Source: a virus
IMG/VR virus record: IMGVR_UViG_3300025660_000003
Span: 64,001-128,000 of that record
DNA: 64,000 nucleotides
Strand: one strand, 5' to 3'
A program made the position numbers and the translations under genes. Shown here piece by piece: positions 2,839 through 52,223 of the stretch. The notes under the pieces are model-generated. The model was not told the origin of the DNA and did no database searches. It was given only the letters and a program-made list of their open reading frames with translations. Positions within the stretch are counted from its first letter, which is position 1. The number at the start of each line of letters is the position of its first letter.

Positions 2839-5800
2839 ATGCCTGCGGTAATCGAAAGCACCCTGTACGAGTCTCCTGGTGGAGCGGTCGTCGCAGGTTC
2901 CACACAGCAGAACAGCCGGGATGATCTCCGGCTGGGCTACCAGGTCACGTTGAACTCGGTGCAGGCGGGCACCACGTACTCCTGGACGCTCGCCTTCGCA
3001 TCGGACTCGCCTGGCACGACGGTTCCGGGCACCCCGTTCGACGGCACCGACTCCGCGTCGTCCCTGCTGCCGCCAGAGGGCAGCACCAGCAAGACCGCGA
3101 AGTTCAACGTGGACTTCGAGGGCACCTACCTCATCCGCCTGACCGTGGACGCCGGGCTCCCGACAGAGTCATCGCAGTTCGTCCGGGCTCGGGTGCTGAC
3201 CCTCTTCGGCTCGCTCAAGCTCATCGCGGCTGGCGAACGACGGGACGAGAACGGCGTCATCCCGGTCGATGCGACCCCAGAGGGCTGGGCGAACGACCAG
3301 AACGCGAACATGCAGCGCATCGGGCTGCTTCTGCGACGGCTCTCGCACTCTGGCCGCATCCTGTTCGTGGACAGCAACCGTGGTCGGGACTTCACCGAAG
3401 ACCAGGACGACTACGACAACGTGCTCTCCCTCCCCGGGCCGGACACGGCCCGGCCGGAAGCGACGGGCATGAAGCTGCGGGCGATGGCCCACGGCGACTT
3501 CTCGTCCATCAACTCAGCCATCGCCTACGCGGCTGCTGCGACAGCTCGCGGCGAGGCGGCTCTGAGCCAGGAGCAGCCTTACGTCATCGTGGTTCGCGAG
3601 GGTCTGTATCAGGAGGACCTGAACCTCACGTCCTTCGTCCACATCGTCGGGGACACCGACACCTTCATTGACATCGACCAGGGCGCGGCCGGGTTCAACA
3701 CCCTGAAGGGCGGGGTCAGCATTCGTCCGGCCCACGTTGCCGGGACTGGTACCCACAGGTTCAACCCGCTCCAGAATGGCGAGAACGCGGAGTGCTACCT
3801 CCTGAACCTCGTCCTGATCGAGATGTCGAACACGACCCTGCCGCTCCTGGAGCAGTTGGGCGGGGCGATGAAGCTCTCCAACTGCATCGTCATTTCGTTC
3901 GGTGATGCCGTCAATCAGGGCGAGGCTCTCCGCTGCGTCGTCTCCAATCCGGCTCACGCCCCCGGCCTCCGGCTGGAGGACAGCTATGTGATGACGCAGG
4001 CCACCACGGCGGACCGGGTCGCTCTGCGGTTCGATGCGACGGGTGGCTCCTGCTACCTCGATCACAGCCAGGTGGTCGCCCCCCAGTGTCAGGGCGTGCT
4101 CGTCAACGAGTCGCTCTACGAGGTCTGCGAGTTCTACGCTCTCCGTCAGACGGAGCTGGGCGCTGTTGCCCCGTACATCGGGTACGCATCCCACCAGTCC
4201 TTCCAGGACAGCGTGGTTGACCCCTTCGGTGGCGGGAACCCCGCCATTGACGTGAGTGCCTTCGGGGCCGGACCTGGCAGCAAGCCTGGGGATGTCATCG
4301 TCGGGGTCAGCGGATGCACTCTGATGGGTGTGGTCTCCTTCGAGACGGCGGCTGCCGTGGGGAACACCCAGCTCATCGGGGCGGGCACCAGCAACGTGCT
4401 GGGTGTGGGTGCCGGTGTCCCCCACATCGTCTTCCCGGATGCTCCTGGCGACATGCCGGACGGCTACGTCGCCATCTTCGATTCGGAGACGGTGAGGTAC
4501 GAGCCCGCCCACGCTGACCCCCTGAAGGGACCGGGTGGGGCCGCAACCATCCCCGGCCCCAACCAGCTCCCGAAGTCGAACGTCCAGGAGGCCATCGACA
4601 TCCTGGTGCAGGCGGTCTTCCCCATCGTCGGGAGCCCCTTCTACTCGCTGCACTCGGCCTACTCCGGCCTGGCGACCCTCAACCCGCCCACGCTGGGCAC
4701 CGGGCTCGGCCGGACCATCATCGCCAACGGTGGTGCGGTCCAGATCACCGGGGGTGTCGCCCCGTTCGCTCTCGACAACGAGCGTAAGGACGGCGGGCTT
4801 CAGACCGAAGGCGTCGTGGACATCGGCGGCCTCATCGGTGGGCCGGGCACCACCCCTCTGGGTCTGGTCGGGCACTCTGAGATCAGCCTCAACCCGAACA
4901 TGATGGGCGTCGGCCCCGTCATCGCTCTCGGGCGGGCCGTATGGACCACTGGTGTCAACGGTGGCGACCGGGGCTTCCCCGGTGCCGTCATCCGTGCGGA
5001 CTCAGCGACAGCTCCGGCACTCCCGACGTTGTCGCCCTACCACCTCCACCTCCGCACGCTTTCGGGGCTGAACTCGAACACGGGTCAGCTCGGGAACATC
5101 TACATCGCCGCAGGCAGCATCGGCGACCCCGCCAGCCCCGACAACCCGGGCCATGTCCACATCAACGGCGGTGGGAACGTCAATGTGGGTGGGAGCACAG
5201 GCGACATCTGGCTCGCTCCTGGTGACCTGTTCGGGGCGGCTGGGTTCGGCAAGGTCTGGTTCGCAGGCACCAACGGCACCCCTACGGTGCTTGTGGCGGG
5301 TGGCCCCTGGATCGGAGGCGTAGGCGGGAACATCGCTATCGGCACGCCGAACGGCGTGGAGTTCTTCACCTTCACGGGTGCAGAGGCCAACATCGCGGCA
5401 GCCATCGCTGTGTTCAACGCAACGGCCAGGGCGTTCATCGCGACAGTGGGTCCTCCGGGCACCATCGCGCTTGTGATGGCCCCCAGCCCGGCCAACGACA
5501 TCGTGTGCCTCGGAGACGACGGCAGCGGGGTGAACGTCAACCTCGGTGACTTCCTCCCGACATCGGCGACATTCACGCCAGGGGCCTACGGCGATCTGGT
5601 CTCTGTGGACGTGCCCCAGAACGGTCGTCTGCGGGTGGACGGTGACCTGGAGGTCACCGGAGCCATCATCGGAGTGATGGACTCCGGCTACAAGTTCATC
5701 ACGGCCGGGATGTCCCCGTTCAGCACGACCACTGAGCACCTGATTCTCGGGGCACAGCTCATCGCTACGCAGGACATCGACATCATCTTGACAGCGGCCT

Positions 5801-5997
5801 ACCCCACGGGGGTCAAAGTCGTCATCAAGGACGAGAACGGCATCGCCAGCGCCTTCCCCGCCCCGATTGGGCAGAGGGTTCACATCACGGACTTCGGCGG
5901 GGCACTGTTCGACGGGGCCGCCGCGTTGAATCTCACGACCAACTTCGCGGCCGTGACGCTCTACAAGAACAGTGCGGGCAACTGGTCGCTCATCTAG
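2839..5997 (+). CDS. Virion structural / tail fibre-like protein, 1052 aa
   Basis: GGAGG RBS; N-terminal PKD/Ig-like segment (GTYLIRLTV), pectin-lyase-like entry (FSSINSAI..IVVREGLYQEDL), SNVQEAIDIL fibre motif, Gly-rich C-terminus. Confidence 0.65.
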   Translation: MPAVIESTLYESPGGAVVAGSTQQNSRDDLRLGYQVTLNSVQAGTTYSWTLAFASDSPGTTVPGTPFDGTDSASSLLPPEGSTSKTAKFNVDFEGTYLIRLTVDAGLPTESSQFVRARVLTLFGSLKLIAAGERRDENGVIPVDATPEGWANDQNANMQRIGLLLRRLSHSGRILFVDSNRGRDFTEDQDDYDNVLSLPGPDTARPEATGMKLRAMAHGDFSSINSAIAYAAAATARGEAALSQEQPYVIVVREGLYQEDLNLTSFVHIVGDTDTFIDIDQGAAGFNTLKGGVSIRPAHVAGTGTHRFNPLQNGENAECYLLNLVLIEMSNTTLPLLEQLGGAMKLSNCIVISFGDAVNQGEALRCVVSNPAHAPGLRLEDSYVMTQATTADRVALRFDATGGSCYLDHSQVVAPQCQGVLVNESLYEVCEFYALRQTELGAVAPYIGYASHQSFQDSVVDPFGGGNPAIDVSAFGAGPGSKPGDVIVGVSGCTLMGVVSFETAAAVGNTQLIGAGTSNVLGVGAGVPHIVFPDAPGDMPDGYVAIFDSETVRYEPAHADPLKGPGGAATIPGPNQLPKSNVQEAIDILVQAVFPIVGSPFYSLHSAYSGLATLNPPTLGTGLGRTIIANGGAVQITGGVAPFALDNERKDGGLQTEGVVDIGGLIGGPGTTPLGLVGHSEISLNPNMMGVGPVIALGRAVWTTGVNGGDRGFPGAVIRADSATAPALPTLSPYHLHLRTLSGLNSNTGQLGNIYIAAGSIGDPASPDNPGHVHINGGGNVNVGGSTGDIWLAPGDLFGAAGFGKVWFAGTNGTPTVLVAGGPWIGGVGGNIAIGTPNGVEFFTFTGAEANIAAAIAVFNATARAFIATVGPPGTIALVMAPSPANDIVCLGDDGSGVNVNLGDFLPTSATFTPGAYGDLVSVDVPQNGRLRVDGDLEVTGAIIGVMDSGYKFITAGMSPFSTTTEHLILGAQLIATQDIDIILTAAYPTGVKVVIKDENGIASAFPAPIGQRVHITDFGGALFDGAAALNLTTNFAAVTLYKNSAGNWSLI

Positions 5998-6015
5998 GCA
6001 GGGGTACGGTGACGA

Positions 6016-9000
6016 ATGGCTTTCACGCCGCCAACGAACCCCGAGGACAGCTACGCACTGAGCCCCTTTGGGTTCGGTCCGTTCCCGCTCCCAGGGGAGT
6101 CGGTTGACGTAGCTCCTCCGCACCCGGTCGGAGGCGGCTACGGCGGTGTCGGCTTCTTGTCGGCGGGCGATCTCCCGGACAACGGCAGCCCCTACGGCCT
6201 GGGCTCCTACGGCTCCCGGTGGTTCAGCCGTCCCAAGGTCAACATCAGCGGCGGCTACGGTGGTGACCCCTACGGCCTGGGCGGCTACGGCAGCACAGAG
6301 GTCACGCCCCCCTACATCTCATCGGCCATCTCGCTCGACGGGTTCACCATCGAGATCTTCTTCAGCGAGGAGGTGGACACCACCAACCCCGCGTTGACCG
6401 ACCCGACCAGCTACACGCTGGAGCCCATCACAGGGGCAGCTCCCGCGACGGTGCTCTCGGTTCACATCGAGAAGCTGGGGTCACTCAATCTGGCGGCTGG
6501 TGACACCATCGTGGGGGCAACCTCCGTCGTCATCACCCACACAGGGACGACCCAGGGCGGGATGTACAAGGCCCACGCCACGGGCCTGACCGACATCGCT
6601 GGCAACCCGATCATCGACGCTGACGCCCCGTTCCTGGCGAAGGGTGAGCCCCCGACCTTCACGGTCAGCCTCCCGGCCCCGGATGCGGGCAACGAGCTGC
6701 TGGTCACCTTCAGCCACCCGATGTTGCAGAATGCGGGTGGCTTCCCGGCCATGGGCAGCTACGACTTCGCGGTAGCCGCCAGCAACCCCTACCCCATCGA
6801 CCTGGTGCCGACGAGCATCGTCGTGGTCAGTCCGACCCAGGTTCGGCTCGGGGTCAAGGGCATGACCTCGTTGAACTACGACCTGACGGTCAGCGAGGCG
6901 TTCGCCTTCGCCTTCGACACGACGCTGGGGCTCCGCAACTGCACCATCTACGAGCAAGGGGCCGGGACCATCACGGAGTCGGCGGGCTACCTGGTCTGGT
7001 CAAGGCCGAAGAATGCGGGCTCATTTGGCCGAGAGTGGCGGGACACCAGCGGCACCATCACCCCGCTGACATCGACCCTGCGAGGTGACTGCACCTTCGA
7101 CTTCAGCAACGCGGCCTTCGACCCGCCGATCTCCATGTTCCCGGCCCCGGAGATCTGCGGCATTGCGATCCAGGACGGTGTGCCAGGCAACGGCATCGCC
7201 GTTTACATCACTCTCCAGCAGAGCATCACCGGGGTCGAGCAGATCCGAATGCAGTCGGGCACCTTCGACATGACGGTGGATGCCACCTGGTCGGACGCGG
7301 TTCACACGATCTCCTTTGTGCGGAACATGCAGGCGGGCATCGTCACCTTCTTGCTAGACGAGCAGCCGCTCACCTCCACTGCGATTGCGAACGTGGACGG
7401 CCCGGCAGATTCCCAGGCGGCCATCCGCTTCGGCTTCTACGGTGGCGGATGGGACATCAGCGGGGTGCGGCTCCACAGCGTCATCCTCACCAGCTCCACG
7501 ACGGTCTTCTCGTCTGCTTGGAACTTCCTGCACGGCCAGATCGGTCAGTTCCTTGGCTCCGACGTACTGACCCGTGACCGACTGCTGACGCAGCGAGGCC
7601 CGCTGGTCAAGGGCTGGGGTGACGCGACCCCAGCGACCGAAGCTGATGTCGCTGTGGTCATCAACGGCACGGCGGTCTCGGTAGCCGAGGTGAACCCCTA
7701 CATCGGCGGCATCGTCATGGCGGTCCCGGTGCCGCTCCTCCCGCTAGGCGACCCGCAGAGCAGCGTGGCGGTGGACTACAAGTGGTTCAAGAGCCCCGTC
7801 ATGGAGCTGGCCGGGTTGAACACCCTCGGCCTGGTGCTCAACAAGTTCGACTGCGCCCGCAGAGGCCACCACGACCCGGCAGCCCACGGCGATCAGGTCC
7901 AGGTTCTTCCGGGACAGCCCGACTTCATGGCGAATCCCGGCGAGCCCAAGGGAGCCGTGGACATCCACCGCTTCCCGATGAGCGTGGTCCTCGGGCCGAT
8001 GAGCCGGAGCGAACCGCTCTACATCGGCCACCGCTACATGGGGTTCGAGCGGGCGTACTCAGCTCTGACCAACAGCCCGACCACCCTGCTGCTCAACCAG
8101 GCCCCAGGGCGCGTCTCCGTGCCCGGCTTCGAGCGGGAGGTAGCAGGGGTCAGTGTGGCCTACGAAGGGCTCGTGAAGCCCGTAGACGCCGCTCCTGCGT
8201 GGGCTCTGGATGGAGCTGACTACGGGGCGGTGGACCACGATGCCGACGCCGGGATCGACCTTGGGACCTACACGATCATCGACCCCATCGTGGGGGATGC
8301 AGGGCCGACCGAGACGGCAACGGTCTACCACCGGGGCCTGGATCTCACATACCCGTCGAGCATCAACCTGGTGGCCCGCTTCCAGACGGCAGCTACGGCC
8401 TTGTTCGACACGGACCACGTCGCCCCTTCCCCGGCTCCGACCGGGCTGGTGACGGTCCCCACGGCTGATGGTGTGTTCACGGGGGTCGGGTTCGGCATCC
8501 ACGACAACCGGCACCTGTACTTCTGCGGGGTGCTCCTGATCAACGGTGTCGAGCACGTCGGCCTGCTGCTCAACCCGAAGCGCATCCACGAATGGGAGTC
8601 CTGGGCCATCGGGCCGAAGTCCATCCTGACGGCCTCCTCGCAGAGTCGAGGGGTCTTCCCGTCCTCGCAGGTCCCCACGGGGTTCAAGGTCGGGTCGAAG
8701 TTCCAGCGGCTCACGGGCACACAGGTCGGGGTCTACACGGCGACGAGCGTTGTGGCTCAGAGCGACGGCACAACCACCGTGGATTTCACGCCCGAACTTC
8801 CGTCGCCCTGGGACATCTACGGAAACAAGTACACGGAGGTCGTATTCGAGACGCGGGCGAGCCTCAAGCCGTTCACCTATCGGCTCGACCTCGACACGGA
8901 CCAGCAGGTCGCAGAGCTGCGGATCTCCGGGGAGACGCGGGGGGTGGTCACCCGCATCGACGGCAACGTGCCTCCGGTCCCCGTGGCAGCTCAGACATCG

Positions 9001-12000
9001 CTCCTGCTCCCGGAGGAGATCGTCGGCCAGGTCTTCTGGGGGTCGTTGAGCAGGCAGGCGGCGAGCAGGGCCACCTGGTCCTTCATGCGCTACGGCCTCG
9101 TACCCGACCAGGTGTTCATTCAGGGCCACGCGGTCGTCAACAACACGGAGATGTCCGATCTCCCCGAGGACAACCCGGCGGCCGGAGGCGGTCAGTGGTG
9201 GCCGTTGCAGACGTTCGGGACGGCAGAGATCCTGCCGAACGTGGACACCTTGCTGCTCAAGGCCACGTCGGCGAGCAGCGTCTACGACCTGAACTACGGC
9301 TACGTCCGGGTGGAGCCATTCTTCACCCCGGACGCCATCTTCGACTACCGGGCAGGCATCCAGCTCGACTCGACCACCATCGGGGCGGGTGGGGCAGAGC
9401 TGCTCCTAGACGACACGCAGCGACAGACCGTCATCCGCAGCCTCATGGTGCTGGAGAACCTGTCTGCTGACCCCACGGCCTACCGGGGCCTGGTGTCGCT
9501 GCCGCAGGTGAGCCACACCGGGCTCTTCCCGCCCTCCGAGATGGGGTGGGCGGTCGAGTCAGGTGCGACCGTGGTGGGGACGCACGAAGGCGCTCAGATG
9601 GTGGTGGTGCAGAACGCCACCCAGCGGGGCCGATGGACCAACAACCTAGTGTTCGACGCCACCGACCCCAGCATCGTCGATGCAGATGAGGGGCGGGTCT
9701 TCGAGGCACGGCTGGAGGTCAAGGCCCGGACGACCAACGCCAACGGTGACTCCGGCATCGTCTTCGGCGGTCAGGTGCAGGGGGCCGGGGCGGTCTTCGC
9801 GTACATCCGGGTCGAGCTGGCTGGAGCTGTCGGCAGCGAGGTGGTCCGGCTGCGGACGGCTACTGGTGTGCCCATCGGGGAGTACACCTTCGACTGGACG
9901 GGGGAGGCCCACACGTTCCGGCTCCTCGCCAACCGGGTAGCGGACACCGTCACCCTGCTCATCGACGACGTGGTGCAGACCCCAAGTGTCGCGTTCACGG
10001 CCTTCTCCGGGGGCACGAACAACACGGAGGCATTCTTCGGCTGCACGGGTCGGGACGCTGCTGATGTCTTCGACACAGCTCTGACGGCCACGGTGGAGTG
10101 GCATCACGTTCACGCCCACGTCCAGGCTCCGGCAGGTGTCGTGCGGACCATCGGTGTCCTGCGAGGGGTGACGGCCAACGCCTACTCGCAGGACATCAAC
10201 GACTACGAGATCCCCCGCACGGACTCCTCGACGGCTCCGAACTCGTGGGCGACCGGGCCGGTCATCGAGTGGTGGGACTGGCGGCAGCCCATCGAGCTGC
10301 GGGTCTACCGCGATCCCGGCTGGGGCGTCACGGTCTTCCGGCCTGACCTGCCCTTGCCTCCCTACTACGTGCCAGAGGACGGCACGGCCGGGGTGGGCTT
10401 CATCACGGAGTCCAACGAACCTTCGGCGGGCTGGATCAACGTCGAGTACAAGAACCTGCCCCCGACCATGGGTGAGCAGCTCGGGTTCGTGGGCTTCGGC
10501 AGCCTGATCCCCGACGACATCAGCCAGGCCCGGTGGGACTGGGTCCGCTACCGGATGTTCAAGCACCCGACCGAGGACCGCATCGCCCCTGAGCACATGG
10601 TCCTCAACCAGTTCAACGTCATCACGAGCGGGGAGCGGACGCAGGACGTGACCCTGGAGTCGGTCATCGTTCAGACGATGGACAAGACGCGGCTCTCCTT
10701 GCTGCCGACGCACCTGTACGCCGAGTCCATCTACAAGATCATCGACGGTGTGACGATCTGGACGCGGGATTTCTGGACCTTCGATCCGGCATCGCAGCTC
10801 GTCACCCTCCAGCCTGATCCGCTGACGGGAGCCGCACGGGAGTTCTCGGCAGAGCACGCCAACGTCACGGTGATGTTCACGCCCGGCCTGCCGGTCACGA
10901 ACACCTACCTGGGTCTCCAGCCGCTCCTGGACGGGGTGACGCTGCTCAACGAGGGCACGCCTCCGATTCCGATGAGCCAGACGGCCGAGAGCGAGATCGA
11001 GACGGTCTACGGCTCGCATTTGAACGACCCAGAGGACGTGCTCAACGACGACCCGGACTTCGTGCTCAACGACCCGCACAGGACGATCCGTCACAACGAC
11101 GTGGACGGCTCGCTCTACGAGGCCCTGGAGTTCATCGAGGTCAACAACGGCGGGCAGACCGATCTCCTCGCAGCCATCTGCGAGCGTGGTCCCGGCACAG
11201 GCTTCTCCGGGCACTCGCCCACCGAGGGGGAGGACATCTACTCCAAGACCGGCGGTGGAGCAGATCTCGGTGGCGTGGGTGATGTCGCTGACCTGTTCGC
11301 CACGGGCGACAAGGTCGGGATGGCGGTCGGGGCAGAGGTCTTCGACTTCAGCGGGACGATGTTCTGGCACGACACGGCCTTCTTGCCCCAGCCGGACTGG
11401 CAGCAGAAGGGCGGGATGCCTGGCGGGATGCTCTTCGCCTCGGGCGGCAACTTCGTCAACCCGGTGGTGGACGCGAACGGCGACATCATCCCCGGAGCTG
11501 TCGTCGCAGGTGGCGGCACCCTCGGACCAGGCTCAGCAGTCCTGTTCCCCACCTTCCCGGCCAGAGGGCCTGTGGGTGGCGACCAGGGGCGTATCTACCA
11601 GCGCACGGACTGGTACATGAGCCTCCGCTCTGTGCTGGCGACCGGCTCCGGTGGTTCGGCAGGTTCGGCAGGCTCCGCAGGTTCGGCAGGCTCCGCAGGT
11701 GGTGGTGGTGCGGTCGAAACTCCGCTGGACGAAGACTGGACGGCATCCGGGTGGGACACCGACGCCCCGAGCGGTCCCGACACGCAGGTCGTCAACCCGA
11801 CCGGGGTGACCAATCCCCTTGGTGCGGCTATCGGGTACATGCTCGGGGCAGGCGACTACTCTCGCTACGGTCCGTGGGGTGGTCTGGGTGCTCTGTCGGC
11901 CGCCAGGGACAGCGGGAGCTTCGTGTTCGTGGTCTCGCTCGAAGAAAACGACCGGGTCATGCTCTGGAACCGGACCACCCTCAGTCCACATCCCTTCGTT

Positions 12001-43084: not shown

Positions 43085-44637
43085 AGTCCCTACTGCGGTC
43101 CCTGTTCATCGGTGACGCTGGCGACAACGGGCAACTGCTTCTGAACAACTACCAGTTGTTCAACGGGTCGGGGCTTGGGTTCGACGTGCCCGAGTACAAC
43201 GCGATCTGGAAGTACATCCAGGAGTTCGTGCGGACGCACAACCACGTCCCGGCCATCCTGACCATCCGGTCGCACTTCGAGTACAGCAAAGAGGACAGCG
43301 TCCTCGACCAGCTCAAGGCCCTGGAGGGGCTGAAGGCCCGAACGAAGGGTGACTTCCAGGGCGTCCTCGAAGACAGGGCGAACGACCGCCGCCAGCGGTT
43401 GTGGTCGGAGGCTCTCAAGGAGGCGTCGATCATCACCTCGACCGGCATGGAAGTGCAGGAGGGCCGGGAGAAGAAGCTGCTCATCGGGCCGGTGATGTCG
43501 GCCCGGTACCTGATGGACAAGGCCCACGACGTAGTGGCTCCGACCATCGGTGGTCGGCTCTCCGGCGAGGTGACCAAGGACGGGGTGGCGGTCAGGGAGG
43601 AGTACGAGCGGGTGGAGTCTGACCCGCTGGCAGGCATCGGGCAGTTCTCGTTCCTGAAGCAGATGGACGATGCCCTGGGTGGGGCGAAGCGGCATGAGCT
43701 GTGGATTCACGCGGCCTTCACGGGCGGCATGAAGTCCACCCTGATGCTGAACTGGGCCTACAACCAGGCCGTCCTGTACGGCCACAACGCCCTGATCTTC
43801 TCGCTGGAGATGCCGTACAGCCAGTGCCGTCGCATCCTCTACGCCATCCACTCGATTCACCCGAAGTTCCGTGAGATTCGGATGCGGTTGGGGCTCCAGC
43901 AGGACTTGGAGTCGGACGTGGGGCTGGCGTACACGGAGATCCGTGACGGCAAGCTGAGTGGCCCGGCCAAGCGGTTCTACTTCGACTTCGTGATCCCGGA
44001 CTTCAACGGGACCGACGTGGTCAAGCACCCGTACATGGACTGCGACTACGGGAAGATCCACATCGAGGTAGCCGATCCCGACAAGGACGACTTCACGATG
44101 CACGATCTCCGGTCGATGGCCGAGATCATCTACTCCAAGGAACCGTTCTCGATGATCTTCGTGGACCACTGCGGGCTGATGAGCCCCCGGCGGCACCGCA
44201 ACAGCACCACCGAGAACTTGAACGAGGTCATCCGGGACCTCAAGAAGCTGGCCCTGGGGTTCAACCGGGGCATGGGCATCGCCGTCGTGGGCCTCTTCCA
44301 GATCAGCCGCGAGGGGTACAAGAGCGCCCTCAAGGCCAAGGAGAAGACGGGCAAGGCGGGCTACAACCTGACCCACCTGTCCTACGCCAACGAGGCAGAG
44401 CGGTCTGCCGACGTGGTGACGACGACGTGGCTCGACGACGACCTGAAGAACCAGAGCAGGGTGCAGTTGAACTGCCTCAAGTCGCGCGACCAGGCTCCGT
44501 TCGACCCCTTCATCGCGCGGGTAGAGTGGCCCTGTCGTCGCCTGTTCTCCTGCTTCGAGGTGGCACGGACCCCGGAGGAGAACGCCAAGATGGGGGCCGA
44601 GATCGACAAGGCAGGCAAGGAGCTGGACGACGACTGA
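43081..44637 (+). CDS. dnaB: Replicative DnaB-like (SF4) helicase
   Basis: AAFTGGMKST Walker A variant, IFSLEM, IFVDHCGLM, FQISREG, ERSADVV, LKSRD. Confidence 0.85.
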   Translation: MKSLLRSLFIGDAGDNGQLLLNNYQLFNGSGLGFDVPEYNAIWKYIQEFVRTHNHVPAILTIRSHFEYSKEDSVLDQLKALEGLKARTKGDFQGVLEDRANDRRQRLWSEALKEASIITSTGMEVQEGREKKLLIGPVMSARYLMDKAHDVVAPTIGGRLSGEVTKDGVAVREEYERVESDPLAGIGQFSFLKQMDDALGGAKRHELWIHAAFTGGMKSTLMLNWAYNQAVLYGHNALIFSLEMPYSQCRRILYAIHSIHPKFREIRMRLGLQQDLESDVGLAYTEIRDGKLSGPAKRFYFDFVIPDFNGTDVVKHPYMDCDYGKIHIEVADPDKDDFTMHDLRSMAEIIYSKEPFSMIFVDHCGLMSPRRHRNSTTENLNEVIRDLKKLALGFNRGMGIAVVGLFQISREGYKSALKAKEKTGKAGYNLTHLSYANEAERSADVVTTTWLDDDLKNQSRVQLNCLKSRDQAPFDPFIARVEWPCRRLFSCFEVARTPEENAKMGAEIDKAGKELDDD

Positions 44638-45875
44638 TGCCGGCCCTGACCACCATCCACGTCGCCCGTAAGCCCCTCGACGGGACGGTGGCAGAGAACG
44701 CCATCAAGCACGGCACTGGCTCCCTCAACATCAAGGAGACCCGGGTCGGCTACCAAAACGAAGCGGACATGCGCCTGGAGACACGGGGGGTCCATGTCGG
44801 TGGTGCCTATGAACATCCAGAAGGCACTGCGTTCAAGAAGGAAGTCAACCGCGTAGCACCCCCTGATACGGGGGGCCGCTGGCCCGCCAACGTCATCCTC
44901 CAGCACCTGGCCGGCTGTGAGCGGGTGGGTGAGCGGGAAGTGACCTCCGGCAACGGTGCCGACACCATGACCCCCACCACGCACGAGGGGCCGGCGAAGT
45001 TCGGATACAGCCCGGAGCGGCACCAGTTCAACTACGGCAAGGAGACGGTCGATCACTGGGACTGTGCAGACGGCTGCCCTGTGGCCGATGTCGATGAGCA
45101 GAGCGGGGTGTCGAAGGGGACTGGGGGCACTATCTCCGGGCAGACGGCTTTCGGACAGAACCTGGGCTGGAACCCCCACCAGAACCGACCCACACCTATC
45201 GTCCGGCAGAACGACGAAGGCGGGGCCTCTCGATTCTTCAAGCAGGTCACCACAGATGAGGATCTCGACATGCCGGCTTTGAGCACCGTCCACATGGCCA
45301 GGAAGCCCCTCGAAGGGACGGTGGCCGCCAACGCCCTGAAGTACGGCACCGGCTCCCTCAACATCGGGGCGACCCGCATCGGCAGCTCCGGGGGGACCAA
45401 GCGAGTCGGACAGGCCACCACACCGACACCTCAGGGGTGGGCCAACATGGGCGGCCACGACATCGCATCGCTGCCTGATGGCCGCTGGCCGGCGAACGTC
45501 ATCCTCGAACACCTGCCTGACTGCCAGTGCGACGGGACACGGAAGGTGAAGGGCGTCAAGGGTGGGTTCACCCCCGGGAGCACGGGGGCCTTCGGCCACA
45601 ACTCGACCTACGGCCTCGCAGAGGGGGTCGAGGGCGACCCTGCTGAGGGCACCGGGTACACCGACGCAGAGGGCAACGAGGAGATTGACCACTGGGTGTG
45701 TGCCCCTGGCTGCCCCATCGCTGACATCGACGAGCAGAGCGGGGTCACGGTCGCCAAGAAGTCCATGCGTGGAGTGGGCTACTCCGACAGCGATGTCTAC
45801 GGTCAAGGTGACGGGGAGTTCGACACCGTTCGGGGGTTCGACGACCAGGGGGGAGCCTCCCGCTACTTCAAGCAG
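44637..45875 (+). repeat. Tandem ~0.6-kb domain duplication within the methyltransferase
   Basis: Copy 1 from ATG 44637 (MPALTTIHVARKPL), copy 2 from in-frame ATG 45270 (MPALSTVHMARKPL). Confidence 0.85.
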
Positions 45876-46652
45876 TCGCAGTACGACCTGATCGAGTACC
45901 TCCGGGCGATGATCTCGACCCCGACCCACCGGGCCTTCGTCATCGACATGGAGACCTACCCCCTCTGGCCCGGGGACCAGCTTCTCGCGAAGCCGGGCTC
46001 GGTGGTCGGCCTGGTGGTCCGGGGAGCCATCGAGCAGGAGCACGTTGACGAGTTCATGCGCCTCCTGCCTCCCGGCGGCCACGTCCTTCTCATCGCTCCC
46101 GACTCGCAGCCCACCGGACACACGGGGGCGATTCTTCTGGAAGATGGCGGCTTCGAGATCCGGGACGCCATCCTTGTCGTTCGAGGCCCGGGACGAGCGC
46201 ACTACGTCGCGAAGGCCGGGCGAAGGGAGCGGGAGGCCGGCTGCGGGCACCTCAAGGGCAAGGCCGGGCACGAGGCCGTGGAGCGCAAGGAAGGCTCCGC
46301 TGGGGTGGACAACCCCAGGGCAGGAGCTGGGCGGACGGCAGAGCACGTCAAGAACTTCCATCCGACCGTCAAGCCCATCGCGGTGATGGAACGACTGCTC
46401 GCTGATGTCCCCGAGGGTGTGACGGTGCTCGACCCCTTCCTCGGCTCCGGGACGACGGGGATCGCCTGCTCGAAGACCGGACACAGCTTCATCGGCATCG
46501 AGCGGGAGGCGGAGTACCTGGAGATCGCGGACGCCAGGGTGAGGCACTGGGACCGAGCCCACGTCGGCTGGCAGGGGGCGGACATCGAGTCGGACCACAA
46601 GGTGCCGGAGGTCGAAGTGGAGCCGATGGACCTGATGGACCTCTTCGGATGA
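44637..46652 (+). CDS. DNA amino-methyltransferase C-terminal-half protein (duplicated middle domain plus SAM-binding domain), 671 aa
   Basis: Two ARKPL...GTGSLNI...GRWPANVIL...ASR(F/Y)FKQ units, then HPTVKP and VLDPFLGSGTTG...FIGIERE; no DPPY. Confidence 0.8.
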   Translation: MPALTTIHVARKPLDGTVAENAIKHGTGSLNIKETRVGYQNEADMRLETRGVHVGGAYEHPEGTAFKKEVNRVAPPDTGGRWPANVILQHLAGCERVGEREVTSGNGADTMTPTTHEGPAKFGYSPERHQFNYGKETVDHWDCADGCPVADVDEQSGVSKGTGGTISGQTAFGQNLGWNPHQNRPTPIVRQNDEGGASRFFKQVTTDEDLDMPALSTVHMARKPLEGTVAANALKYGTGSLNIGATRIGSSGGTKRVGQATTPTPQGWANMGGHDIASLPDGRWPANVILEHLPDCQCDGTRKVKGVKGGFTPGSTGAFGHNSTYGLAEGVEGDPAEGTGYTDAEGNEEIDHWVCAPGCPIADIDEQSGVTVAKKSMRGVGYSDSDVYGQGDGEFDTVRGFDDQGGASRYFKQSQYDLIEYLRAMISTPTHRAFVIDMETYPLWPGDQLLAKPGSVVGLVVRGAIEQEHVDEFMRLLPPGGHVLLIAPDSQPTGHTGAILLEDGGFEIRDAILVVRGPGRAHYVAKAGRREREAGCGHLKGKAGHEAVERKEGSAGVDNPRAGAGRTAEHVKNFHPTVKPIAVMERLLADVPEGVTVLDPFLGSGTTGIACSKTGHSFIGIEREAEYLEIADARVRHWDRAHVGWQGADIESDHKVPEVEVEPMDLMDLFG

Positions 46653-46658
46653 CAAGGG

Positions 46659-47441
46659 TCAGCGACCCAGGGCCATTCTCACTGATTTCTCGGGGTCGGC
46701 TTTGAAGTCTATTTCCCACACTTCCACTACAGGGACACCTTGAGCAGCGAGGAACGCGAGCTTTCTTTTGTACCTGGAGGCGGTGCGCTTCTGCGAAGAG
46801 TATTTGGGGCCGTTGGGGTAAGCGCGGGGGTCGGCGTGCCAGAAGGTCCCGTTGAACTCCAGGGCGGTGTTGATGATGGGCAGGTAGTAGTCCACCACAG
46901 CCGCGAATCGTCCGTGATCCCCCCTCATCCGATGCTGTGCCTGGTACGTGACGCCGAGCTGGTCGAGAATGGGGGCAACCTGCTGTTCCAGCTTGGACAC
47001 GCGAGGGATGCGGCCCTCGCTGATAGCTCTGGCGACGGACAAGGAGATTTTGGCCTTGGTCTCCTCTGTGTGGGCATAGCGGCCCTCGGCTTTCCTCCGG
47101 GTGTTTTGCCTGATCATCCGCAAACCCTGAGCTTGTCGGGTGGCCTCTGGGACGACATAGGGCTTGGTGACGACTCGCTGCACCAGCCCAGTCGATCGGG
47201 CCTTGTAGGCGCAATCGGGGGAACACAGCAAGACATCGGTCTTCGACCTGGCCACCCGGGATGGCGGGCGGGTCACAGGAACTCCACAGACTCCACACGG
47301 TTCAGTAGATGAGGTGGACTTGTTGGAGGCCCGTAGCGAGTAAGAGCAGGTACGAGAGCAAGTCGTCTGCCGGCCATGTTTGAGGCGGGTAGGGTCGGCT
47401 TCGTAGGGCGTCCCGCAGACGGGACATCGACGTTTAACCAA
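46659..47441 (-). CDS. Free-standing Vsr/DUF559-like (putative homing) endonuclease with Zn fingers and NUMOD3-like motif
   Basis: CPVCG...CSRTC, CGVCG...CSPDC, HTEETKAKIS, SKLEQ, VVDYYLP...LEFNGTFWH; lower GC; start uncertain (TTG 47441 or ATG 47513). Confidence 0.75.
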   Translation of the reverse strand: MVKRRCPVCGTPYEADPTRLKHGRQTTCSRTCSYSLRASNKSTSSTEPCGVCGVPVTRPPSRVARSKTDVLLCSPDCAYKARSTGLVQRVVTKPYVVPEATRQAQGLRMIRQNTRRKAEGRYAHTEETKAKISLSVARAISEGRIPRVSKLEQQVAPILDQLGVTYQAQHRMRGDHGRFAAVVDYYLPIINTALEFNGTFWHADPRAYPNGPKYSSQKRTASRYKRKLAFLAAQGVPVVEVWEIDFKADPEKSVRMALGR

Positions 47442-47451
47442 GGAGCACCCC

Positions 47452-47580
47452 GTGGGTGAAGGAGAACACAGCCGTAGGGCGCAGGTGATCCGGCTCCGAC
47501 TCGGAGATTGCATCAGGGTGCTTCGTCACCTCGATGCAGAGTCGGTTGATGCCGTGGTCACTGATCCGCCCTACGGTTGA
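47452..47580 (+). CDS. DNA methyltransferase N-terminal fragment with catalytic DPPY, 42 aa
   Basis: Not in ORF track; AAGGAG RBS; MGEGEHSRRAQVIRLRLGDCIRVLRHLDAESVDAVVTDPPYG then TGA. Confidence 0.8.
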   Translation: MGEGEHSRRAQVIRLRLGDCIRVLRHLDAESVDAVVTDPPYG

Positions 47581-49337
47581 CCATACCTGGACTGGAGTTC
47601 ATGGGGAAGGACTGGGACGCCCCCTGGAAGCTCGGGGCCGGGATGATGAAGCCTGGCATCGGCGACCGGGACATCCCCTGGCCTGCCTACGGAGCCCAGA
47701 AGTTCGGGGGCTCGAACCCCACCTGTCAGACCTGCGGCGGTCGGGCGAGGGGCAGCAACAGGTGTTCCTGCGAGGAGCCTGACTGGCACGTCAGCGGGAA
47801 GCCCCTGTCTGACGACGTGAACGACTCTGCCAGCCCGGTAGTTCAGCGACAGCGGTTCCAGGCCTGGTGCGTCCTCTGGCTGGTGGAGGTCTACCGGGTG
47901 CTCAAGCCTGGTGGGGTCATCAAGGTCTTCGGAGCGACCCGGATGTTCCACCGGATGGCGGCGGCGATGGAGGAGGCGGGGTTCTTCCTCCCGCCTGAGC
48001 ACAGCCTGGAAGCCTGGATGTATGGGTGCCTGTCTGAGGACACTGAGGTATTGACCGAGGACGGGTGGGCTCCCTACCATAGAGCCACGGTTGGAACGCT
48101 GGTGATGGGGTTCGACCCTGTGACGGAGCGGTTCATCCAGCAGCCTGTGGAGGAGACCTTTGAGTACCCCTACGACCGAGAGGCTTTCCGAATCCACGGA
48201 GACGGAACTGACCAGATCGTTTCCGTCAAGCACCGCTGTCTCGTCGGGCGAGACGGTAAGTGGGAGGTCGTCGTCTCGGGCGACCTGGCGGAAACTGAGA
48301 CAATGCCCTGCCTGCAAAGCGGAGTTCATTCCGAAGGCGTCGGGTCAGAAGGCATGTGGGCGCTCCTGCTCGAACCGGCTGCGGGTCTACAAGAAGAAGC
48401 CCTTGTCCGAGCGGAAGGGCCGGATGGTGGCCTGCTCGGTCTGCGGGACCGAGAAGTGGTACGCGGAGGCGTGGCTGCGGAAGGGCATCAAGCAGCCGAC
48501 GTGTTCCAGGAGGTGCAACGGAGTGCATCGGGGGCAGGACTGGGCGAAGCACGGGCACAAGGGAGCGGAAGCCAGAACACCAGAGAGCTACCAGCGTGCC
48601 GCCCAGAAGATGACCGGCTCGAAGAACCCGGCATGGAAGGGCGGGGTGACGTACGTGTCCCACAGAGGGAACTACAAGCGGACCAAATGCGTCCGTTGTC
48701 CGCCGGAGTATCGGTCGATGGCTCGGTCGAACGGGTACGTCGCAGAGCACAGGCTCCTGGTGGCGAGGGAACTGGGCCGAATGTTGACGAGGACCGAAGT
48801 GGTTCATCATGTGAACCACGACTCTCAGGACAATCGGCTGGTGAACCTGATGCTGTTCGCCTCGAATCGGGATCACAAGCTGTTCGAGCACCACGGAGCA
48901 CCAGCCCCGATCTGGTGCGGGTCAGCGCACGAGTCGAGCGTATCCACTACACCGGCACCGTCTGGTGCGTGAGGGTGCCTACCGGGGCTTTCGTGGTCCG
49001 CCGCAAGGGCATGGCATTCGTCACTGGCAACAGCGGCTTTCCGAAGTACCTCAACACCAGCAAGGCCATCGACAAGGCGGCTCGTGGGGTGCCACAAGGA
49101 GGACCCGACGAGACCAGCCCGAACCACGGCAAGTACAAGACACAGGCCACTGAGGGTTCCCGTGGGTCGGCTGATGTGGGTCAGGGGTACGGTGCCGGTC
49201 CAGGGGCCTTCATGCGTGAGGCCGGGACTCTGGTGGACCTCCCGTTGACGACGCCCGATGCAGAAAAGTTCGACGGATGGGCCACGGCTCTGAAACCAGG
49301 GTGGGAGCCATTTCTGGTAGGAGTGAAAGCAGAATGA
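47577..49337 (+). CDS. DNA methyltransferase second fragment, intein-containing
   Basis: GLEFMGKDWD...EVYRVLKPGG...FGATRMFHR...WMYG|intein|SGFPK...SKAIDK...GWATALKPGWEP. Confidence 0.8.
   Translation: MTIPGLEFMGKDWDAPWKLGAGMMKPGIGDRDIPWPAYGAQKFGGSNPTCQTCGGRARGSNRCSCEEPDWHVSGKPLSDDVNDSASPVVQRQRFQAWCVLWLVEVYRVLKPGGVIKVFGATRMFHRMAAAMEEAGFFLPPEHSLEAWMYGCLSEDTEVLTEDGWAPYHRATVGTLVMGFDPVTERFIQQPVEETFEYPYDREAFRIHGDGTDQIVSVKHRCLVGRDGKWEVVVSGDLAETETMPCLQSGVHSEGVGSEGMWALLLEPAAGLQEEALVRAEGPDGGLLGLRDREVVRGGVAAEGHQAADVFQEVQRSASGAGLGEARAQGSGSQNTRELPACRPEDDRLEEPGMEGRGDVRVPQRELQADQMRPLSAGVSVDGSVERVRRRAQAPGGEGTGPNVDEDRSGSSCEPRLSGQSAGEPDAVRLESGSQAVRAPRSTSPDLVRVSARVERIHYTGTVWCVRVPTGAFVVRRKGMAFVTGNSGFPKYLNTSKAIDKAARGVPQGGPDETSPNHGKYKTQATEGSRGSADVGQGYGAGPGAFMREAGTLVDLPLTTPDAEKFDGWATALKPGWEPFLVGVKAE
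48027..49031 (+). mobile_element. Intein (335 aa) in the methyltransferase
   Basis: Starts CLSEDTEVLTEDGW, block B VSVKHRCLV, ends YTGTVWCVRVPTGAFVVRRKGMAFVTGN followed by Ser; removal restores WMYG-SGFPK. Confidence 0.9.
48160..48972 (+). CDS. HNH homing endonuclease encoded in the +1 frame inside the intein
   Basis: Two Zn fingers, GSKNPAWKGG, GYVAEHRLLVARELGRML...EVVHHVNHDSQDNRLVNL; GGAGGAG 4 nt before TTG 48160. Confidence 0.85.
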   Translation: MSTPTTERLSESTETELTRSFPSSTAVSSGETVSGRSSSRATWRKLRQCPACKAEFIPKASGQKACGRSCSNRLRVYKKKPLSERKGRMVACSVCGTEKWYAEAWLRKGIKQPTCSRRCNGVHRGQDWAKHGHKGAEARTPESYQRAAQKMTGSKNPAWKGGVTYVSHRGNYKRTKCVRCPPEYRSMARSNGYVAEHRLLVARELGRMLTRTEVVHHVNHDSQDNRLVNLMLFASNRDHKLFEHHGAPAPIWCGSAHESSVSTTPAPSGA

Positions 49338-49687
49338 GCGACGAGAACAAGCCGAACGACATGGACCACCTCTGCCCTGGCATCGAGAAGACGGTCCACT
49401 GGCTCCAGAGCCACGGGTTCAAGACCACCGACTCCGGTGATGGGGTGAGCAACGAGGGGATGGAGTGCGCCATCGACTTCCCGAACGTCTTCATGGTCAC
49501 GGAGCCCCAGCACCTCATCCCCGAGTGCAAGAGGCTGATGAAGGTGCTCGCCGAGAAGGGCATCCAGTGTGGGGGCATGACGATGGACGGGGCACCGAAG
49601 CCGCACATCGAGGGCTCCTACGACCCCTCGGACGGCAACGCCATCATCAGCCTGTTCTATGTGGACGACAAGAAGCTGTTCGGGTAG
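49334..49687 (+). CDS. Hypothetical protein, 117 aa
   Basis: ATGA coupling; codon bias. Confidence 0.65.
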   Translation: MSDENKPNDMDHLCPGIEKTVHWLQSHGFKTTDSGDGVSNEGMECAIDFPNVFMVTEPQHLIPECKRLMKVLAEKGIQCGGMTMDGAPKPHIEGSYDPSDGNAIISLFYVDDKKLFG

Positions 49688-49719
49688 GCACAATCCCCGT
49701 CCACAGCACTGAGGAGCCC

Positions 49720-50070
49720 ATGCGTCTACGTCCTGATGAACAGCCTGTGTGGAACGATGACGGCACCTGGTCGTGTCGCCGTCACATCCCGCAGCATCGC
49801 TACCACGCGACCGCACCCCGCTGCCTGATGGGCTGTCCCATCGAGCGACCGGAGCGGCCTGGGGCGAAGCTCACGGTGGTCCCGGAGCCGGTGGAACTAC
49901 CCTGGCAGGACTTCGACCAGCTCGACGCAGATGCCCTGGCGACCTACGACATCCATCGGCTGCGGAAGTACGCGGCGAACGTGCTGCTCATCCGGGGTGC
50001 ATCGAAGATCAGGGGCGGCAAGCCCGTCCTGATCGCTCGCATTCTGAAGCACCGCAGGGCTGTGGCCTAG
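49720..50070 (+). CDS. Hypothetical protein with C-terminal HeH/Rho-N-like helical motif, 116 aa
   Basis: GAGGAG RBS; LATYDIHRLRKYA...IRGASKIRGGKPVLIARIL. Confidence 0.55.
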   Translation: MRLRPDEQPVWNDDGTWSCRRHIPQHRYHATAPRCLMGCPIERPERPGAKLTVVPEPVELPWQDFDQLDADALATYDIHRLRKYAANVLLIRGASKIRGGKPVLIARILKHRRAVA

Positions 50071-50957: not shown

Positions 50958-51711
50958 CCGGCTGGACGATGACCTTGCCGATGGGTGCCGGGGCCTCGTA
51001 GCCCTCCGGCTTTTTCAGGTACGCGGCCACCAGGAAATCAGGGACCAGGAGGCAGTGCTCGATCAGGTTGAGGTTGCGACGGATGTACCCCTGCCGCTGC
51101 TCATCCGTGAGCCACGGGCAGCGTCGTGCGAGCCGGTGGCAGTCGCGGAGGAGCCGGTCGATGGCGGCGTGACGGTCGCGGCTCTCGTGGGGGCTGGAGT
51201 GCCACATCTGCTCGGTGGCCTCCTTCAAGGCGACCTTGTCGAAGCCCTTGGAGCCGTTGCACGCGATGAGGCGGCACCACATCTCGCCGTAGTCGTGGGT
51301 CGAGTCGTCGATGATGATGAACGGGGTGCCGATCAGGTCGTTCTCGATGAGGTACTCACGGATGGGGTGGCCCCCGCCGCGAGTGCTGCTGGTCTGGCCC
51401 ACCAGACACTCCGGGTTTTTGAAGCCCGCCGCCGTGAACATCACCTTCATCTCGTCCAGCGTGTTCGTGTTCCATGCCGTGTTGAATACGATCCGGGTGT
51501 CGAAGCGATGCCGCTGGATGAGGCGTCCGATGTGCCCCACGAGATCCGGGTTCAGCTTCCCGTGGTGCGGGCCACCGTGCTTGTTGCACACCCCGTCGAT
51601 GTCGAGGAACACCAGCACCTTCGTCGCCCCGTAGCGGTGGTGGTGCGGCGGCTGCCAGGTGGTGAACCCTTGGGCGGGGGTGCCGGGTGGGGGGGTGATG
51701 ATGGGGCTCAC
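50938..51711 (-). CDS. HAD-superfamily phosphatase (HAD_SAK_2-like)
   Basis: VFLDIDGVCN, IVFNTAW, FIIIDDS motifs. Confidence 0.75.
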   Translation of the reverse strand: MSPIITPPPGTPAQGFTTWQPPHHHRYGATKVLVFLDIDGVCNKHGGPHHGKLNPDLVGHIGRLIQRHRFDTRIVFNTAWNTNTLDEMKVMFTAAGFKNPECLVGQTSSTRGGGHPIREYLIENDLIGTPFIIIDDSTHDYGEMWCRLIACNGSKGFDKVALKEATEQMWHSSPHESRDRHAAIDRLLRDCHRLARRCPWLTDEQRQGYIRRNLNLIEHCLLVPDFLVAAYLKKPEGYEAPAPIGKVIVQPDDEEAG

Positions 51712-52223
51712 AGAGCGTCCTCTGGACCGAGGCAGAGGGAGCCTCGGAGATCGAAGTTGGCGTAGAACTCAGCATCCGGCGAGCAGGAGACGTAGCCGGG
51801 CTTGAGTCCGGTGCTCTGCAAGCCATACGCCCCCAGGGTGCCCAGCAAGGCCCCCTCGTTGCGCTTCAGCCAGGCGATGACCAGCGGGACCGTGAAGTCC
51901 TTGTGGGTCAGGACGCGGAGGGCCGCGAACAGGCGGTCGAGCTTGATGGTCTTGAAGGGCGGGTCGAAGACGATGAGCTTCGGCTTGTAGGACAGCGGCT
52001 CCGGGTGGTGGATGTCCCACACCTTGAACCACGGGGCTCCCTCGAACCGGGTGTCGATGTCGAGCACGGTCGGGGGGCGGACCTTCCGCTCCTCGGCCAT
52101 GTACTCGCCGAGGCGGGGGCAGCAGAGGGCGACGGCATGGTCGTACTGCCAGACGAGCTGCCCGAGGCGGGCCAGGGTCGGCTCATCGAACCAGTATTGC
52201 TCTCGCTGGTGGTTCTCTTCCAT
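51708..52223 (-). CDS. N6-adenine methyltransferase-like protein (ZCCHC4 / EEF1AKMT1-N6AMT2 family-like)
   Basis: EQYWF..TL, ALCCPRL, LDIDTRF, IVFDPPF motifs. Confidence 0.6.
   Translation of the reverse strand: MEENHQREQYWFDEPTLARLGQLVWQYDHAVALCCPRLGEYMAEERKVRPPTVLDIDTRFEGAPWFKVWDIHHPEPLSYKPKLIVFDPPFKTIKLDRLFAALRVLTHKDFTVPLVIAWLKRNEGALLGTLGAYGLQSTGLKPGYVSCSPDAEFYANFDLRGSLCLGPEDAL

Follow-up and report, generated by a model that had tools for sequence, protein, structure and literature searches.

Methyltransferases that need more than one polypeptide include M.AquI, M.EcoHK31I alpha/beta, the Type I HsdM/HsdS enzymes and METTL3-METTL14, which have either a separate specificity part or an inactive paralogue. 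The C5-methyltransferases of the Bacillus phages SPR, phi3T and rho11s carry tandem target-recognition domains on one catalytic core within one polypeptide. Here we describe a methyltransferase locus at positions 44637-49337 of a 64,000-nt stretch of viral DNA, the window (bases 64001-128000 of the 141,696-base IMG/VR virus record IMGVR_UViG_3300025660_000003; G+C ~65%). Compared with the heteromeric enzymes its class and split point are different: motif IV (DPPY) and the S-adenosylmethionine (SAM)-binding motif I (FxGSG) lie on different proteins, and the protein with the SAM half also has what looks like a dead copy of the other half. Compared with the Bacillus phage enzymes it would be a beta-class amino-methyltransferase, and the core itself is split over two proteins. 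The actinophage methylases Awesomesauce gp76 and the Dorothy gp75/ShiLan gp65 family (PF01555; PMC9957025) share its motifs in the order DPPYG-LEFMGK, RVLKPGG, YG/SGFPK, TALKP-EP, ARKPL..GRWP.N..SRFF, H.TVKP and FxGSG, and gp76 has an intein at the same insertion site. These contiguous enzymes are single polypeptides, whereas here the chain breaks off after TALKP-WEP and a separate, downstream gene encodes the catalytic half; the recognition modules occur twice, in fusion with a DPPY-less half plus the SAM-binding half. With moderate confidence, we read the locus as a split, multi-gene beta-class amino-methyltransferase whose catalytic-half gene has been colonised three times, by a homing endonuclease, a stop-containing insert and an intein; the layout reads as neither scrambling nor decay. 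No beta-class enzyme with motif IV and motif I on separate proteins was found in the literature searched.

The colonising elements also resemble described systems. In T4 gene 60 a homing endonuclease, MobA, likewise lies beside a conserved gene, a short non-coding insert early in that gene opens with a stop immediately behind a Gly take-off codon and closes on a matching codon, the interrupted genes have a conserved N-terminal extension, and the insert blocks self-cleavage (bioRxiv 10.1101/2022.08.31.505936, Manning & Atkins). By that account the bypass has stayed a solitary case, confined to topoisomerase genes that carry homologues of a single element. Unlike T4 gene 60, the host gene here is a methyltransferase rather than a topoisomerase, the endonuclease is Vsr-like rather than an HNH MobA, the gap is 3-17 rather than 50 nt, a take-off stem-loop was not detected, and bypass is a prediction. 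The ShiLan domain and other hidden HNH insertions place an endonuclease in another frame of a stop-free host frame, in this same methylase family (Arsenault et al. 2025, PMC11855218), and actinophage inteins contain antisense VSR-like and out-of-frame endonucleases, again with the host frame free of stops (bioRxiv 10.1101/2025.01.02.630785). In the window, a +1-frame HNH gene lies inside a bona fide methylase intein, whereas the non-canonical endonucleases of the latter study are listed for four other host proteins only; the Vsr-like gene of the window is free-standing upstream rather than inside the intein.

The first gene of the locus is an open reading frame (ORF) of 671 aa on the plus strand (ORF1, 44637-46652), whose ATG overlaps the stop codon of a DnaB-like gene. 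It encodes two tandem ARKPL..GRWPAN..SRFF modules, then a DPPY-less stretch, then HPTVKP and FxGSG. The first module, C (44637-45269), resembles a target-recognition domain and is 52% identical to the second, C' (45270-45872), which has its own ATG with GAGGA 8 nt 5' of it. C' is 68% identical to module 2 of a syntenic relative, L004, and C has no close counterpart there (47-50% identity). The DPPY-less stretch, B' (45873-46199), is followed by D (46200-46649), comprising helix X, HPTVKP and the FxGSG SAM-binding half, and D aligns with the C-terminal half of M.BceJIV over 76-78 residues at 44-46% identity. Beyond an antisense endonuclease ORF comes the catalytic-half gene, again on the plus strand. 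Its 5' part, A (42 codons, 47452-47577), has a GTG start at 47452 and AAGGAG at 47440-47445, and the ORF (47452-47580) ends in DPPYG and a stop; the remainder, B (47577-49337, 586 aa), is in the -1 frame relative to A. The FxGSG motif is confined to ORF1 and DPPY (47563-47574, the end of A) to the downstream gene. Motif IV and motif I in the order of beta-class enzymes were found in no single polypeptide here, and come together only across two proteins, in a co-fold model. The match of ORF1 to PF01555 is limited to residues 569-631 in D (62.5 bits, cut-off 26.7), and B reaches 22.2 bits, under the gathering cut-off. An earlier note made from the sequence alone had described these ORFs and motifs, with the antisense endonuclease, A ending at DPPYG-stop, B in another frame, a SAM-motif ORF without DPPY and DPPY pieces without a SAM motif, and all of this was confirmed.

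Eleven loci were read for the pairing of ORF1-like genes with catalytic halves. ORF1-like proteins are full-length in many phage contigs, with one to three C modules, and family relatives P0004-P0049 span 68-100% of ORF1; DPPY is missing in every one, and FxGSG and HPTVKP are invariant. The ORF1-like gene adjoins at least one separate DPPY catalytic-half gene in 10 of the 11 loci (among them L004, L006, L007, L008, the P0009 contig, L020, L188, L189 and L190). In the syntenic L004 and L006 (130-143-kb contigs) the ORF1-like gene follows DnaB as in the window. Next to it, each start overlapping the preceding stop, L004 has two intact catalytic-half genes (248 and 261 aa) and L006 has one. These catalytic halves all terminate at TALKP-WEP-x-VG-x-K and a stop, and all 11 inspected proteins among the top catalytic-half matches (160-278 aa, three of them called from the FMGK Met) end at that motif. 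Separately encoded catalytic halves are common, and the contigs of several have lengths that also appear among the ORF1-like matches. The split point is conserved among relatives whose genes are intact, and the order that the note had taken for scrambled, C, C' and D before A and B, is the normal gene order of syntenic relatives. The contiguous homologue Awesomesauce gp76 (817 aa) shows the ancestral order A-B-C-D in one chain: DPPYG runs directly into LEFMGK, an intein separates YG from SGFPK, and ARKPL comes straight after TALKP-x-x-EP; a tblastn search with B returned 163 mycobacteriophage methylases. About 10 homologous residues at the cut are common to both proteins (WEP-x-VG-x-K against T-I-H-x-ARKP), so the split does not divide a single ancestral gene neatly in two.

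Selection was estimated as the ratio of non-synonymous to synonymous substitution rates (dN/dS) by the Nei-Gojobori method, with the ORF1 parts compared with L004, L006 and L007. The values are 0.18-0.26 for B'-D, 0.32-0.45 for B' alone and 0.3-0.55 for the C modules, of which C' is orthologous to L004 module 2 and C is without a close partner. For the exteins of B the ratio is 0.23-0.39 in comparisons with uninterrupted genes and 0.18-0.28 when the partner gene is itself interrupted. These values indicate purifying selection on all parts; the outcome that would have refuted the note's reading, neutrally evolving fragments with an intact contiguous gene in relatives, is not what we see.

For B', an hhalign comparison with the catalytic-half profile gave 35 columns in register over the PGG strand, the helix and the GF(E) strand (E 1e-4, probability 58%). 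The match is weak, and the degenerate B-like core proposed in the note is accordingly only tentatively a degenerate copy of the catalytic half. A PDB profile match to M1.HpyAVI spans B' into D, which makes a minimal but complete methyltransferase, with motif IV since lost, the probable ancestor of B'-D. P0009, a single-module ORF1-like protein, was modelled with AlphaFold2 at a predicted local distance difference test (pLDDT) score of 75, rising above 90 in B' and in D. The D part of this model resembles the C-terminal halves of CcrM, M.RsrI and M.BceJIV (Z 5.6-6.4, root-mean-square deviation (rmsd) 1.7-3.3 Å, 76-90 residues), and B' in the models separately matches the beta4-beta7 halves of other Rossmann enzymes. 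Foldseek comparison of the ORF1-like model with solved beta-class enzymes gave an rmsd of ~20 Å; VIA-align matched D and B' separately. A model of B'-D only (pLDDT 70, nine sequences) reached Z ~6 with a partial joint alignment. B' patterns run against viral contigs lacked specificity: ordinary methylases came up through their ED-GFE motif, and of 80 loci only L108 had a true B'.

Assembly in trans was modelled with the minimal natural pair of relatives, P0009 and the adjacent 197-aa catalytic half P0218. The co-fold scored 0.87 and the best of three controls 0.00. Among solved complexes 58 of 80 attain that mark, and among mismatched pairs 2 of 110. The runs share at least 66% of contacts and the partner pLDDT is at least 73. 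The lowest-error contacts bring catalytic-half residues 23-25 (before DPPY) to 413-415 (before DPFxGSG), residues 4-5 (the N-terminal strand) to 434-436 (the next D strand), and residues 184-188 to 104-108, that is, TALKPGW against GRWPAN of the recognition module. In the model the DPPY strand thus lies against the FxGxG strand of the other chain and the canonical beta-class sheet is rebuilt from two chains, and it is this model that supports binding. The enzyme would then work as follows: ORF1 would supply the SAM-binding half and a choice of two recognition modules, and the separate downstream gene the DPPY half, whose N-terminal and DPPY strands would flank the beta1-beta2 pair of the ORF1 C-terminal half and so form one Rossmann active site in trans, presumably active in methylation, with the TALKP loop packed on the GRWPAN loop of the recognition module. 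B' may serve as a placeholder or as a pseudo-dimer partner. Two considerations count against this assembly: halves of a well-known fold can score high through likeness to solved methyltransferases, and the B' of ORF1 itself could fill the place of the catalytic half, its packing being ambiguous in the monomer models.

It is also conceivable, and to us quite improbable, that ORF1-type proteins are self-contained, dead methyltransferase-like binders of DNA or SAM, such as regulators or decoys, that the DPPY proteins have another partner or none, and that the adjacency reflects shared ancestry. The loss of motif IV in all ORF1-like members would suit such a role, as would the full secondary-structure set of a minimal methyltransferase that ORF1 keeps in the M1.HpyAVI match, and L108 has a stand-alone B'-D protein and, in the DNA fetched, no catalytic half within 6 kb, the sole exception among the 11 loci. 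The pairing in the other 10 loci, often with overlapping stop and start, argues otherwise, as do the invariance of FxGSG and HPTVKP in ORF1-like proteins and the confident co-fold. A catalytic half without motif I would, moreover, be unable to bind SAM alone, as is generally known for class I methyltransferases. Conservation, selection and the co-fold model favour the core of the note's reading, an enzyme put together in trans from ORF1 and the DPPY half; its three-piece version is not supported.

The recognition modules vary in number, with 0-3 fused to the SAM-binding half and up to five free-standing, which fits the interchangeable C modules proposed in the note. A 326-kb contig (L008:3552-11129) encodes five catalytic halves, five free-standing modules (142-200 aa) and one C-B'-D protein, with halves and modules alternating and their stops and starts overlapping. 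In the 257-kb viral contig L108 the stand-alone B'-D protein (280 aa) is followed by at least three free module genes (5986-8107 and 11174-11803). The ORF1-like gene of L006 (8001-9947) contains recombined partial modules, with an SRYF end joined to the second half of another module, which suggests shuffling between tandem modules. Other variants were seen around the split genes. The catalytic half at L007:7704-8858 extends past the usual end into a domain with a Pfam match to RE_Eco29kI and may be a fusion of a methyltransferase half and a restriction endonuclease. In L190 a 198-aa MT-A70 family protein with DPPW (5450-6046) overlaps the ORF1-like gene start. Catalytic-half genes show a second recurrent break, in L189 (9649-12333) and at the end of the B ORF in L058. 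Past the SGFPK region the frame stops at a shared ..W-S-T-D-H-E, and TALKP is found only ~750 nt farther on, in an ORF of its own, perhaps on account of another inserted element.

Aligned with the two genes of L004 and that of L006, the catalytic-half gene of the window differs at the junction of A and B only by 14 extra bases (47578-47591). The junction reads TAC, GGT (47575-47577), then a coding gap of a TGA stop and 8 nt (47578-47588) that is not in uninterrupted homologues, then GGA (47589-47591), followed by CTG GAG TTC ATG; a jump from GGT to GGA gives back precisely DPPYG-LEFMGK. We found 21 distinct inserts of this kind, with gaps of 3-17 nt. A stop (TGA, TAG or TAA) directly follows the codon after DPPY in 20 of the 21, the single insert without one being that of L089 (7 nt). 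Take-off and landing codons are synonymous in 17 inserts, and in seven of these they are identical; 16 of the 17 matched pairs are Gly codons, with all four GGN codons in use, and the remaining one is GAT/GAC in L020, where the residue differs. The interrupted genes have a common basic N-terminal extension that the uninterrupted genes lack and that may be a nascent-peptide signal, and the downstream ORF is intact to the family end motif in 12 of 15. Among interrupted genes dN/dS is 0.11-0.28, with synonymous sites near or past saturation, which means that the region beyond the stop has long been translated, and the conserved downstream frames imply some recoding; these comparisons support the view that recoding of some kind is required and occurs. 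The note's separate, designed subunits A and B thus become one gene, interrupted by a 14-nt stop-containing insert tied to a homing endonuclease, and its translational coupling of A and B is not supported either: a start codon is missing from the junction in most sister loci.

A reassigned stop codon was ruled out because TGA, TAG and TAA are all seen at the site. An assembly artefact is unlikely because analogous inserts occur in independent assemblies, and the exact 29-nt pattern spanning the insert had no match in viral contigs. No tRNA gene that might aid hopping was found in the 64 kb of the window. The insert was found without a nearby endonuclease in L190 and L193; that of L190 is 8 nt long, contains a stop and has identical GGC codons on both sides. 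In a 418-kb contig (L191:161-3208) two antisense endonuclease cassettes stand in tandem, each followed by a short DPPY piece, and the second insert has the landing codon TGT in place of a Gly codon.

We think it unlikely that the split enzyme works in relatives and that the catalytic-half gene is dead here, the insert being a frameshifting scar and ORF1 acting alone or being inactive. The stop and the frame change directly after DPPYG would suit this reading, as would take-off and landing codons that are not identical, the failure to find a stimulatory RNA structure, and a record with two PF01555 places, ORF1 and B, and no second catalytic half. Yet the frame that follows stays open over 586 codons, counting the intein, the extein dN/dS is as low as given above against uninterrupted and interrupted genes alike, and like inserts persist in 21 diverged loci with intact downstream ORFs.

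The crossing that we favour is a ribosome hop, most likely of peptidyl-tRNA-Gly from GGT to GGA, which would yield the canonical DPPYG-LEFMGK. Several observations weigh against a hop. The codons of the window, GGT and GGA, are synonymous and not identical, and three sister landing codons differ, at position 1 only (AGT, CGC and TGT). Folding of 91-nt segments at 12 interrupted sites against shuffles gave no significant take-off RNA structure (z -1.4 to +1.4) and no common hairpin. Short hops are inefficient in E. coli. The 20 stop-bearing inserts have lengths of 0 or 2 mod 3 and never 1, and the gap of the window differs from that of L058 at six positions, all of them synonymous in the downstream frame. 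These last two observations would fit a -1 shift or readthrough, and we regard as somewhat unlikely the possibility that the insert is translated in one of these ways, adding Leu-Thr-Ile-Pro-Gly after DPPYG, or that translation restarts at the overlapping TTG and gives separate A and B peptides. In every frame-shifted case but one, moreover, the downstream frame runs through the gap without a stop, and in the class I loci described below the same site tolerates in-frame insertions of ~290 aa. The exceptional gap, that of L061, has a downstream-frame stop; a -1 slip of tRNA-Gly onto CGG would pair poorly; and if a sense insert sufficed, there would be no explanation for the stop that 20 of 21 inserts have next to the take-off codon. 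As for a restart, TTG overlaps the stop in the window, L086 and L099, but most junctions have TTA, CTA, ATA or CTG, which makes restart at a start codon unlikely as the general mechanism.

The endonuclease that accompanies these inserts lies on the minus strand of the window (46659-47441). Its ORF is open over 46659-47513 with a likely start at the TTG at 47441, it has N-terminal zinc knuckles, and it matches PHROG homing-endonuclease families (phrog_3339, 'homing endonuclease', E 5e-9); Pfam Vsr matches were obtained in relatives only, in L018 (E 6e-4) and L020 (E 5e-3), both under the cut-off. It is seated back to back with the start of the catalytic half, its TTG overlapping the AAGGAG that serves the GTG of A (window 47439-47454). 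An identical back-to-back layout, with an 11-nt spacer, is seen in L011. Relatives of the endonuclease were retrieved at ~97 loci, 45 in viral and 52 in metagenome contigs. In those read in detail, the endonuclease is antisense and located either right after DPPY(G/E)L or just 5' of a gene with the mini-insert; the family occupies one codon site in dozens of loci and is missing from L004 and L006. The window belongs to the latter arrangement (class II), with the endonuclease back to back with the catalytic-half start and a short insert after the codon following DPPY. In class I the endonuclease lies antisense inside the methylase gene, immediately 3' of DPPY(G/E)L, and the methylase frame stays open (ORFs of 606-818 aa), free of stops through ~290 codons even in AT-rich phages. 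Class I was seen in L017, L018 (2993-4894, minus strand), L019, L021, L028 and ~20 more loci; intein ends and Rfam introns were not found in it, and the antisense-coded peptide presumably forms a loop that its methylase tolerates. A group I or II intron was rejected as vehicle of the endonuclease or insert, with no Rfam family at threshold in nine loci; over 44000-50000 of the window the only Rfam match was a chance snoRNA (E 0.48). The 14-nt insert of the window would lie in the presumed target of the endonuclease, the DPPYG/LEF codons, and so protect the phage's own DNA.

The third element of the catalytic-half gene is an intein of 335 aa (B residues 151-485, 48027-49031), which accounts for the 586-aa length of B. 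The catalytic half resumes after the insert (47589-48026) with LEFMGK, a Cys-rich insertion and RVLKPGG, and the intein follows between YG and SGFPK, a site that is shared with gp76 and L006 and already published (PMC9957025). It begins with Cys at 48027 and ends with Asn before the Ser+1 (49029-49034), with a penultimate Gly rather than His, as in gp76; once it has spliced out, as we expect, the C-terminal extein (49032-49337) would continue from SGFPK to TALKP-WEP and the stop. No Pfam Hint domain was matched in B at E 0.01; relatives have PF13403. Inside the intein, in the +1 frame, lies an HNH endonuclease ORF (48160-48972, plus strand; PF13392, 29.8 bits), and in both the window and L006 the host frame passes through it without a stop. 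The inteins of the two differ by 206 substitutions, with a sole indel of 9 nt, and third-position bias follows the intein frame at both ends and the HNH frame between ~48300 and 48926; as the phase of substitution switches between frames, both frames are functional. The HNH gene is flanked by intein splicing ends, unlike the ShiLan-type insertions, for which self-splicing domains are absent by definition. An out-of-frame HNH gene within a methylase intein thus appears to be a new combination of reported kinds.

If correct, this would be a natural beta-class amino-methyltransferase with motif IV and motif I on different proteins and with modular, shuffled recognition domains, offering large phages a route to multi-specific anti-restriction methylation and a scaffold for engineered split methyltransferases. 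A wider proposal, possible but less likely than not, is that the 3-17-nt inserts form a second, independently evolved class of endonuclease-linked hopping, far more compact than that of T4 gene 60, and at the same time that the enzyme is of a hub-and-spoke kind, in which one SAM subunit is shared by interchangeable catalytic halves and modules, fused or free, to give combinatorial specificities. The insert family provides ~20 diverse natural sequences on which hop, shift and readthrough can be compared, and would be a second case for the idea that bypass inserts protect the genome of a homing endonuclease. The locus stacks three ways for selfish nucleases to live inside a gene without killing it.

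A nucleotide search of 50,697 phage records gave no near-identical phage. Just 5' of the locus is a replication block of an SNF2 helicase, a 411-aa protein and the DnaB-like helicase. Farther downstream, a 171-aa ORF on the minus strand (51708-52223) is syntenic with L003, L004 and L006 genes that have matches to PF10237 (N6-adenineMlase), and would be a second, unrelated small methyltransferase of the same phage.

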